A stretch of DNA of 64,000 nt, taken from assembly GCF_003334335.1 (NCBI RefSeq), contig NZ_QOWQ01000007.1. One strand, written 5' to 3'. The notes under the pieces are model-generated. The model saw nothing but the letters and a program-made list of their open reading frames with translations. It had not been told where the DNA came from and made no database searches. This stretch comes from Escherichia coli (GTDB lineage: Bacteria > Pseudomonadota > Gammaproteobacteria > Enterobacterales > Enterobacteriaceae). Below, one piece after another: positions 7,425-10,741 of the stretch; position 1 is the stretch's first letter; the number at the start of each line of letters is the position of its first letter. A program made the translations under genes and the position numbers.

Positions 7425-10400
7425 TCAGTTAATCGCGAAATAACTGCTATTCACCAGCAAATCCAGCGGTTGGGCATCGGCAATCACATCACCATAAATC
7501 AGATCGACGCCGATGCCAGAAAGCGTATCCATCACTAAGGGTAAAACGACTGGCCCGGCGATGGTTTTCATCCCGAGTCGCTGAGCGTGCCCCTGAATAA
7601 TCGTAATCAGCATCTCATCCATCAAATTACCCTGCACGTTGGCGCATAACTCACCATCAAGTAGCAGGTAATCTGCCATATTCGCTTTCAGCGAGTTGAA
7701 GATTTGCAGATCGCGGCCCACCTGGCTGAGCACTATCCGACATCCCGCCAGCCGCAGTTTTTGCACGCTTACTGCGTGATCTAAAATCGCTTCAGCCGGA
7801 ATAATCAGATGTAATAACCGTGGTGGTAGAGGGCTATTTTCCAGCTGCTCAAGCAGATCATTCACCAGCGTGGCGCTACTCAAACCGGCAACGGAAAGAG
7901 GGAGGGCGATGCTTATGCCTTTACTGGCAACCGCTTTTGCGGCCTGCTGGAAAAATTCGTGGAATACCCGTCGGTCAAGAGCATGGCTAAGTGCCGGATC
8001 GCTGAAGCTACGACGAAATTTTTGTTCATCAATAATCTCGCCTTCGCAACTCCAGAGCTAAAGTGAAATCAGCCACAAATTACGCGCTTCCGGGATCCGC
8101 GGCGAAGCGACACCGTGGGCGATCATCATCAACTGATTCTCTTTAATCATCCGCCACTGTTCATCAAGCGACATCGCCGCCCGTTCGCTATGTGCGGCAG
8201 CTTGCTGTGGTTCGTAAACCGTCACCCGGCCCCGTCCACCATTTTTGGAGGCATAACAGGCGATATCAGCCTGCGACATCACTTCTGCCGCCTGATGATT
8301 GTTGTCATCAATCAAGGTAATCCCGGCACTGGCACCTACCCGATGCACACGGCCTTCCCATATAAAGTGATAATCATTCACGGCACTGATAATGCGTGTA
8401 GCGATAAAACGCGCACTTTCGATATTACAGTCTGGCAACAGTAGACCAAATTCATCACCACCGAGTCGCGCCAGCACGTCGCTGGAGCGCAGCATACTCA
8501 GCATCAACGACGCCAGTTCGCGCAGTAAAGCGTCACCCGCCGCATGCCCGGCGCTGTCATTCACCGCTTTAAAGCGATCAAGATCGATAAACACCAGGGC
8601 ATGTCGCTGATGTGTACTGTTTACCGTTTGCAGCAGGATACGCAGTTGTTTCTCAAAACTGGCGCGGTTGGCGAGATGCGTCAGTGCATCATGGGAGGCG
8701 CTGTAGCTCAGCTGGCGCAGCATTTTGCGTGATTCGGTAACGTCCTGAATCACCAGAACCGAACCAATATTGCTGCCGTCCAGAGTACTTAACGGCGTAA
8801 TACTGTAATGCACGTCGTAACTGCCGCCGCTCCGACAGTGCAACACCACATCTTGTTCGATCGCGGAACGTGAGGTGTCGGCACTGTAAATGTTCTCCAT
8901 TAATGGTCCGTTGTCGCCAAAAGTAATATGCAACACCGTCAGGAGCGGAACACCTAACGCTTCTTCCTGCGTCCAGCCGCTCATCTTCTCCGCCACTGGA
9001 TTCATAAAGGTAATTTTCATCGCCATATCAATACAGACCACGGCTTCACCGATGGAATCAAGCGTAATGTGCAGGCGCTCTTTTTCCTGAAACAATGCCT
9101 CGTTAAGCTGTTTAACCTCGGTCATATCCATATTAATGCCGAGCAGGCGTTCGACTTCGCCTTCTTTATTCAGTACCCGGTTGGCGAGGGCGCGGATATG
9201 GCGAATACCGTCTTTTACGGTAATGCGAAATTCCAGCTTAAAGGGCGAGCGTGATTGCAACGAATCACGAATCACTTTTTCGGCATGCTGGCGATCTTCC
9301 GGCAGCACGCACTCGTACCACACCTGCCAGTTCGGTTTGATATGCGGAGGAATTTCATACAGCTCGAACATCCGCTTATCCCAGCTAAAAATATTCGGCT
9401 TCAGCTCCCACTCCCAGATGCCAATCCCGCCCGCTTCGTTAGCCAGCGTGATGCGCTCCATCAGTTGCTGATTCACCTGTTCGGTGCGTTTTAGCTCGTT
9501 AATGTCTTCAATCTGAGCGATAAAATAGAGCGGCGTGCCATCCGTGTGGCGCACCAGTGAGACGGCAAGCAACGCCCAGACAACATCGCCATTGCGGTTG
9601 TAGTAGCGTTTTTCCATTGAATAGGTGTTTATTTCACCGCTTATCAGCTTTTCAACCTGTTGGAGATCTTTATTGAGATCCTCCGGCCAGGTCAGTTGCT
9701 GAAAGGTGAGTCCGCGCAGCTCTTCCTGACTGTACCCGAGAAACTGGCAGAGCGCTTTGTTGGTTTGCAGCCATTGTCCCTCGGTGCCCACTAACGCCAT
9801 ACCGATAGCGGAATATTCCATGGCGTTCCGAAAACGGGTTTCGCTTTCGGAAATGTGTTTGCGTTCCGCACGAAAGGCATACATCACCATGGTCATGATG
9901 TTGGCGGGCAGCAGGATCAGCAAAAACGGTAGCCACGGCATATGGCTCATCAGGTATGTACGCGGCGTAGCAAGCAGGGAGGGATCCGCGGCCATCATCA
10001 GCGACACCATCATCACCGTGGTAAGGAAGATCAAAAAGGCTTCCATTCGTGGCAGGCGCACGGCGCTCCACATCAACAGCACAATAATGAAAGTAAAAGG
10101 CCACGGCAGATACAGCATCGAAAGCCAGCTTAACGTCAGTGTGATGGCTAACGTGAGCAGCGACTCAAAAAGCAACCGTGGGTTGCGATGGCGCAGCAGA
10201 TAGTGTGGTTTAAATAACAATCCCAGCGGCACCAGTGCCAGAGCGCCGATGGATTCTGACAGTACCCATATCAAAAATGCCCTGAGAGGATCGTCTCCGG
10301 GCGTCAGCAGGACAACCAGACCCCCCCCAACAGAGGCGGAACAATGGCGCTGCCGAGTGCCAGACGCAGCCAGTCAGCCAGATTTTGCAAGGGGTTATAC

Positions 10401-10741
10401 CACGGCAGCAATTTACGTAGCAGCACTGCCCCGACCACGGCTTCAACCATATTGATGGTCGTCCAGGTCATGTTCAGCGAGCTGGTGGAAAAAAGCAGGA
10501 TGGATGCGGCGATATTTCCCAGCGAACAGCTCAGCGCAATTCCCGGCCACATGCGCCCGGCATGGCGATAAAACGCCACCATCATGATGGACGTCGGGAA
10601 CCACAGTGGGGCGAGTTGGGTGCCAAACTGCGAAAGCTCAAGCGAGAAAAGGGTAAAGATAAACGAGACTAAACCTAAACTGACCAGGTGAAGCAGCGGG
10701 TGGGGCAGGGCAATTAATACATGCTGTGATTGTTTGCTCAT
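7425..10741 (-). pseudogene. dgcE: Diguanylate cyclase DgcE (YegE; MASE1-PAS-GGDEF-EAL) disrupted by a frameshift near 10319-10321 and an in-frame TAG at 8058-8060
   Basis: Three co-linear minus-strand ORFs (10304-10741, 8058-10274, 7425-7883) together span the roughly 1105-codon dgcE; the first two are in different frames and the join lies beside a C8 run (10321-10328); the second and third are in the same frame, separated only by TAG; GGDEF motif 'RLGGDEFGLLL' present. Confidence 0.75.

Follow-up and report, generated by a model that had tools for sequence, protein, structure and literature searches.

The dgcE Locus and Its Two Lesions

The window analyzed here is a 64,000-nucleotide (nt) stretch of Escherichia coli DNA (NCBI RefSeq assembly GCF_003334335.1, contig NZ_QOWQ01000007.1), and the gene in question is its copy of dgcE, also known as yegE. 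The gene is encoded by the minus strand and is flanked by alkA (6529-7386, plus strand) and udk, the same neighbors that it has in K-12 and in all relatives compared. Its identification in the original prediction was upheld by this udk-dgcE-alkA synteny, by the 42 nt differences that separate it from K-12 b2067, and by the order of the encoded domains (MASE1-PAS3-GGDEF-EAL). The gene is 3317 nt long in the window, compared to 3318 nt when intact; an intact relative also differs from K-12 at 42 of 3318 nt and at 9 amino acid positions. The following features were delimited within the locus.

7425-10741, minus strand: dgcE (yegE, b2067 orthologue) pseudogene, assigned from udk-dgcE-alkA synteny and from Prokaryotic Genome Annotation Pipeline (PGAP) annotation in near-identical genomes
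10304-10741, minus strand: N-terminal open reading frame (ORF) of 145 amino acids (aa), ending in PPLLGGVWLSC, with TGA at 10306-10304
9861-10687, minus strand: MASE1-encoding region (residues 19-294 of the repaired protein, from Pfam and hydropathy), split by the frameshift at codon 141
10321-10328, minus strand: poly-G tract (C8 on the plus strand), gene nt 414-421, codons Leu138-Gly139-Gly140-Gly141, site of the -1 frameshift
8058-10274, minus strand: middle ORF of 738 aa, starting at TTG 10274 and ending in NLWLISL at the amber TAG
8229-8699, minus strand: GGDEF-encoding region (residues 682-838), free of lesions by Pfam scan and translation
8058-8060, minus strand: amber TAG (CTA on the plus strand), K895*; AAG elsewhere among the genomes compared
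7425-8057, minus strand: untranslated remnant holding the degenerate EAL domain and the original stop (Pfam residues 898-1088 correspond to window 7479-8051)
7883-7425, minus strand: third ORF, in the same frame as the 738-aa ORF

The uninterrupted frame of 1105 codons is absent from the window, being broken by a frameshift at codon 141 and by the amber at codon 895, and the gene is therefore a pseudogene of the DgcE family rather than a functional member of it. The C8 run at 10321-10328 is the sole C/G homopolymer of at least 8 within dgcE; the tract is G8 in the window and G9 in intact relatives. When one G was added to the tract in silico, the translation ran to 1105 aa, was interrupted only by the stop at codon 895, and otherwise equaled the intact DgcE of strain BS74R-D (WP_000043794.1). 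Pfam places MASE1 at residues 19-294 of this repaired protein, three PAS domains at 303-672, GGDEF at 682-838, and EAL at 898-1088. As the gene stands, the 145-aa ORF extends through about four and a half hydrophobic segments from the start of MASE1 and terminates in the out-of-frame residues VWLSC. The 738-aa ORF occupies a different frame; it encodes the distal half of MASE1, all three PAS domains, and the GGDEF domain, which is intact, its GGDEF motif and RSSD I-site both being readable in the translation.

In the two nearest complete genomes, LR-29-1 and BS74R-D, dgcE is intact: the tract is G9, and codon 895 is AAG. The window's gene is set apart from theirs by just one G fewer in the tract and one sense-strand A-to-T change (AAG to TAG). 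A frameshift at a homopolymer and an in-frame amber codon in place of AAG had both been proposed, and both were seen, in the window itself and in alignments to the intact dgcE of other E. coli. Two details of their placement required revision. The deletion had been assigned to a Val codon at 10319-10321, but residue 141 is Gly here, the intact tract is G9, and the base was lost within the run at 10321-10328; Val belongs to the K-12 protein. The amber codon had been positioned before the EAL domain, but it falls downstream of GGDEF (682-838), which is intact, and the region of EAL homology has by then run for about 35 residues, the Pfam match at residue 898 beginning at model position 39.

The tract encodes the Gly triplet of a hydrophobic segment (residues 129-145) that is about the fifth of the ten MASE1 membrane segments by Pfam and hydropathy, ten being the number described for the MASE1 domain of DgcE (PMC6510439). 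K-12 reads TTG GGG GGT GTT CTG at this position (G6-T-G-TT; Leu-Gly-Gly-Val-Leu). The allele family to which the window belongs reads TTG GGG GGG GGT CTG, which amounts to V141G plus a synonymous change.

Length Variation of the Poly-G Tract

Tract lengths were tallied with 47- to 51-nt blastn probes spanning the tract, which were searched against the complete-genome collection with clonal replicates included.

G7: 2 records, out of frame
G8: 41 records, out of frame
G9: 95 records, in frame
G10: 75 records, out of frame
G11: 10 records, out of frame

In total, 223 records were recovered, about 4% of genomes, and the tract is out of frame in 128 of them (57%). Megablast probes of 72 to 74 nt were abandoned for counting alleles because alignments cut at a nearby single-nucleotide polymorphism (SNP) were mixed into the top identity band. 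Checks of HS-01 and ET791 showed that hits with slightly shortened probe alignments are genuine G8 alleles in which a SNP falls on the final base of the probe, and PGAP annotates dgcE as frameshifted in both strains. The same annotation is applied to PEC1009, E47, EC21Z-147, the enteroaggregative (EAEC) strain 042 (G10), O111:H2 12A (G11), and N73.

The variation in length is found among very close relatives. In a haplotype comparison of 21 sequences, the alleles located no more than 2 SNPs from that of the window over 3.3 kb included G8, G9, G10, and G11, so tract length changes much faster than substitutions accumulate. Among public contigs, the 145-aa N-terminal peptide diagnostic of G8 was present on 202 (310 index blocks), among them DEC15B and contigs named in SPAdes style (NODE_), and N-terminal fragments corresponding to G10 were present on more than 130, including DEC12A. 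The dgcE tract is, then, a homopolymer inside a coding region, the length of which varies among close relatives and sets the reading frame. Rescue of G8 by transcriptional slippage or programmed frameshifting was considered and judged unlikely because the documented cases in E. coli involve A/T runs. We found no description of the tract in the literature searched on dgcE/yegE frameshifts or pseudogenes, in which PMC12472240 and PMC5635171 yielded nothing specific; the survey by Povolotsky and Hengge (2016) lay outside this search.

A homopolymer of this kind might be a contingency locus that toggles DgcE, in which case the G8 tract of the window would be an OFF phase able to slip back to G9; we consider this unlikely. 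The distribution of lengths from G7 to G11 is bell-shaped, as a switch might produce, four lengths occur among near-identical haplotypes, and 11 of 14 sampled out-of-frame sequences bear no further lesion once the tract has been repaired in silico. The clone-mates N73 (G8) and N137 (G9) also differ at the tract, but that difference may be a homopolymer sequencing error: the two differ at a G5/G4 run in mdtC as well, and because that indel leaves sequencing error possible, the pair was set aside as proof of switching in vivo. (The mdtC gene of N137, at 34887-37963, is flagged as frameshifted by a G5-to-G4 change that is not in its clone-mate N73 and that is either a mutation or a residual homopolymer error.) E. 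coli is mismatch-repair proficient, and the switching rate expected of a run of G8 to G9 is far below that of classical contingency tracts, which counts against a switch. So do the nonsense mutations gained in two G8 lineages, a decay-like pattern, and the absence of a G9 allele with the TAG from the record. Moreover, the window does not hold an otherwise intact OFF allele, since tract repair leaves K895* in place and does not restore the wild type. Under a switch, ON cells of this lineage would make a hyperactive DgcE without its EAL domain, consistent with the hyperactivity of the K-12 enzyme when that domain is removed (PMC6510439). The more general proposal that, in carriers of V141G (about 4% of E. 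coli), the G9 tract is a true switch for the biofilm cyclase and K895* a gain-of-function, EAL-less allele held OFF strikes us as improbable; if it were true, slippage back to G9 would release hyper-matrix variants.

Predicted Consequences for DgcE Function

Both lesions had been described as inactivating in the original prediction, a claim that can be assessed against deletion variants of the K-12 protein. Without MASE1, which is the docking site of the activating GTPase RdcA, or without the three PAS domains, K-12 DgcE behaves as a dgcE-null mutant, with low CsgD, curli, and phosphoethanolamine (pEtN)-cellulose; without the degenerate EAL domain, CsgD increases and the colony overproduces matrix like a pdeR mutant; and without both MASE1 and EAL, the phenotype is again null, the loss of MASE1 being epistatic (PMC6510439). 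Because the MASE1 deletion is null and epistatic in K-12, we infer that the frameshift at codon 141 is the inactivating lesion, and this half of the claim stands. The other half does not, since the amber codon takes off only the degenerate EAL domain, the deletion of which raises CsgD and matrix in K-12. On its own, K895* is probably not inactivating and would have an effect like that of the EAL deletion, which is hyperactive; combined with the frameshift, it would be masked. By analogy with K-12, and in keeping with the natural dgcE frameshift that costs soil isolates their CsgD and curli (PMC6029578), reduced production of matrix (CsgD, curli, and cellulose) can reasonably be expected in the strain from which the window derives.

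A rival reading is that the split gene is partly functional. Re-initiation at TTG 10274 or at an internal ATG would yield a membrane-anchored protein comprising half of MASE1, the three PAS domains, and GGDEF, which would still make cyclic di-GMP (c-di-GMP), possibly together with the 145-aa fragment. The 738-aa ORF does retain the GGDEF motif and the I-site while lacking the inhibitory EAL domain, its TTG is located 27 nt past the premature TGA with a weak Shine-Dalgarno sequence (AGGG) 5 nt upstream, and a Shigella dgcE pseudogene keeps some cyclase output (PMC11327459). However, a TTG codon preceded by so weak a Shine-Dalgarno sequence is itself a point against re-initiation, and the MASE1 deletion is null even when EAL is also deleted (PMC6510439), from which it follows that output through the CsgD pathway needs MASE1. 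A partly functional split gene is accordingly a rather improbable reading of the locus.

Recurrence of Both Lesions in Independent Assemblies

The 738-aa ORF requires both lesions, and contigs that bear its exact product therefore carry both. This product was found on 10 Logan contigs. One, from SRR7230379, is 100% identical to window 2058-16274 (14.2 kb), and another, from SRR32903638, is 100% identical to window 4084-16274 (12.2 kb); a contig from SRR27434586 has both lesions together with 3 SNPs. Over a different part of the window (18347-39570), the NCBI draft assembly GCA_049547825.1 is 100% identical. With both lesions exactly reproduced in assemblies of at least three sequencing runs, the premise that they are not the errors of a single assembly was confirmed. 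The recurrence across independent runs, along with the PGAP calls of G8 alleles as frameshifted, indicates that both lesions are inherited. The dgcE tract is also the sole indel between the window and BS74R-D in 39 kb, so the window is not full of homopolymer errors. Judged from these assemblies, which repeat both lesions in independent runs, and from the scarcity of indels relative to BS74R-D, an origin of the lesions in consensus error appears essentially excluded. The TAG of K895* was present in 0 of the 5,040 complete RefSeq E. coli genomes that matched an 81-nt probe.

An artifact, with a miscall in the homopolymer and a consensus error behind the TAG, is thus hardly credible. Although runs of 8 to 9 G are classic sites of long-read error, the clone-mates N73 and N137 disagree at two G runs, and an A7/A6 indel at 44009 separates the window from LR-29-1, independently assembled contigs from at least three runs match at both lesions, G8 is co-inherited with private second mutations in two lineages, and the G8 fragment is found on SPAdes-style (NODE_) and other draft contigs.

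Second Mutations and the Order of Events

The exceptions among the 14 sampled out-of-frame sequences, which retain a lesion after tract repair, are the lineage of the window (K895*) and a second G8 lineage composed of E47 and ERZ773264. In the latter, W445* falls in the PAS region, at a position equivalent to window 9408, and PGAP describes dgcE of E47 as "frameshifted; internal stop." This second nonsense mutation fits what would be expected of decay after a frameshift. Alleles that have G8 but otherwise equal that of the window occur in PEC1009, GCA_958335105, and GCA_001286645, and the 894-aa product expected of a G9 tract with the TAG had no record by exact look-up. Because G8-only alleles exist and the G9+TAG product is not on record, the order in which the frameshift came first and the nonsense mutation second appears favored, short of proof.

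We consider it probable that the window contains a genuine, heritable dgcE pseudogene that arose by contraction of the tract from G9 to G8, with K895* as a later, masked second hit. Two T-to-G changes relative to K-12 (GGT GTT to GGG GGT, giving V141G) fuse a G6 run into G9 inside a transmembrane segment of MASE1. The length of the resulting tract shifts at a pace well above that of point mutation, for which replication slippage is the most plausible mechanism. In the lineage of the window the tract is G8, and the frame is lost at codon 141, with a stop after 145 residues. If K-12 genetics apply, no full-length DgcE with an intact MASE1 would be made, and the DgcE input to curli and pEtN-cellulose should be lost, as MASE1 is essential for triggering the PdeR-DgcM-MlrA-CsgD cascade. 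The change of AAG to TAG at codon 895, which removes the degenerate EAL domain, would be phenotypically masked by the frameshift; most likely it came later, once selection on the gene had been relaxed.

Several observations weigh against this account, in addition to the internal TTG and the residual Shigella activity discussed above. The flanks of the window are closest to those of genomes with G9 and AAG, namely BS74R-D (6 differences over window 77-39,500) and LR-29-1 (13 differences over 63.4 kb, with the same O-antigen cluster as the window), and no intermediate of the window's own lineage was found among the genomes and contigs searched. Of the 13 differences from LR-29-1, 3 are inside dgcE, which makes up 5% of the 63.4 kb, and one of the 3, T856A, is specific to LR-29-1; this enrichment (estimated binomial P of ∼0.03) speaks for the account and is suggestive, but it is based on very few mutations. 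Finally, some of the tract differences between long-read clone-mates may be sequencing errors and the census may be somewhat inflated, because N73 and N137 also differ in mdtC and because clonal sampling adds replicates.

Two leads on the ancestry of the window were pursued and discarded. WcaI I233N was used as a marker for intermediates and returned 16 contigs, all of which stop short of dgcE or belong to other backgrounds. The apparent identity of the window to PEC1009 in a first search (100.0%) was due to rounding; PEC1009 shares the G8 tract but has AAG at codon 895, and 44 SNPs in 20 kb separate the flanks.

Other Features of the Window

Apart from the dgcE lesions, just two changes in the shared 39 kb distinguish the window from BS74R-D as well as from LR-29-1, namely wcaE V215A (25085) and wcaI I233N (29044). 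Both are nonsynonymous changes in colanic-acid genes, and I233N lengthens an A7 run to A8. The window is almost identical to BS74R-D, which has an O126 cluster, up to approximately 39.5 kb; SNP density then jumps from wcaM/galF onward (∼39500-41100 and 55300-64000), and the O-antigen cluster differs. The window matches LR-29-1 over the whole O-antigen, gnd, ugd, and his region. This pattern marks a recombination breakpoint at the junction of the colanic-acid and O-antigen genes.

Within the O-antigen cluster, which is present in just 3 complete genomes, a G11 homopolymer (46677-46687) is located in a 336-aa ORF (46072-47082, plus strand) that is annotated in LR-29-1 as a family 4 glycosyltransferase of that cluster. 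The run keeps the reading frame in the window, is unchanged in LR-29-1, and represents a further slippage-prone tract, this one in a surface-polysaccharide gene. The A7 versus A6 indel relative to LR-29-1 at 44009 lies 27 nt before the stop of a gene annotated as "hypothetical protein" (possibly a polymerase) in the same cluster. The last few codons of the gene would change as a result, and this is the sole indel besides the dgcE tract in 61 kb.

At the other end of the window (1-571), the first 76 bases have no counterpart in the alignments with BS74R-D and PEC1009, and the LR-29-1 alignment begins only at 572. This region contains tandem repeats of the ibs type I toxin downstream of mdtA, the copy number of which seems to vary among strains. 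An IS1B insertion splits the LR-29-1 copy of yegJ (∼2729-2738) and is missing from the window and BS74R-D.

Implications and Comparison with Known Systems

DgcE stands at the head of the program that leads to CsgD, curli, and cellulose, which it triggers, and its loss therefore alters how a strain builds biofilms and how it is perceived by the host. In the allele family that bears the G9 tract, the gene is unusually easy to lose, with 57% of the complete genomes that carry the tract out of frame. For strain phenotyping, the presence of the gene is thus no guide to biofilm behavior, and in pangenome studies split dgcE calls will show up as "markers." Homopolymer frameshifts in assemblies should be checked before they are dismissed as errors. 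A premature stop in a multidomain signaling enzyme is likewise not always inactivating, as the removal of EAL activates DgcE in K-12.

The contingency loci of Neisseria, Haemophilus, and Campylobacter have a G/C homopolymer near the 5′ end of the coding region, the length of which sets the frame. The dgcE tract is similar in that a length polymorphism switches the frame among close relatives, but it is short (8 to 11 nt), it is carried by a mismatch-repair-proficient host, and some of its OFF alleles are decaying. To our knowledge, E. coli is not known for this mechanism.

Naturally occurring pseudogenes of dgcE have been described before, and the double-lesion allele is one more. One of them is a frameshift, H486fs (1456delC), that is clonally inherited in soil-persistent E. 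coli of phylogroup B1; CsgD and curli are lost in these strains, and dgcE in trans complements the defect (Somorin et al. 2018, PMC6029578). Both cases involve a one-base deletion in dgcE of wild isolates that was passed on within a clone. The soil mutation, however, is located in the PAS region at codon 486, where no long homopolymer was reported, and it is accompanied by PdeR E620K rather than by a second dgcE lesion; its phenotype was measured.

Recurrent loss is also evident in pathogens. According to Povolotsky and Hengge (2016), as cited in PMC11327459, nine pathogenic E. coli strains have a dgcE gene that is annotated as a pseudogene; they represent the enterohemorrhagic, enteropathogenic, and enteroaggregative pathotypes, to the last of which belongs strain 042, frameshifted here by a G10 tract. 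The shared feature is the repeated natural loss of the gene, whereas K895* is in no complete genome. In bovine Shiga toxin-producing E. coli O156:H25, yegE was noted as much smaller and probably divided into two genes (PMC5359238). Unrelated breaks were observed in TA271, ERR6053340, DRR317788, and SRR13183040, where single-base indels near window 7884-7906 leave ORFs of 953 aa and 152 aa; TA271 has an additional 6-bp deletion at window 9404-9409. The gene is therefore disrupted in several independent ways in nature.

The dgcE gene of Shigella flexneri has a premature stop at residue 366; the lesion is described as an insertion of the IS110 family of insertion sequences that gives this stop and a frameshift, and residual c-di-GMP synthesis has been demonstrated (PMC11327459). 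As in the window, the break in dgcE precedes a GGDEF domain that is itself intact, and internal starts may be available. The lesion there stems from an IS110-family insertion rather than from a homopolymer. A functional parallel is provided by the MASE1 and EAL deletions engineered in K-12 (Pfiffer et al. 2019, PMC6510439), which are roughly mirrored by the two lesions in the window and whose epistasis predicts the phenotype. The engineered variants are clean deletions, whereas in the window MASE1 is interrupted, about 35 EAL residues are left, and the strain background is another.

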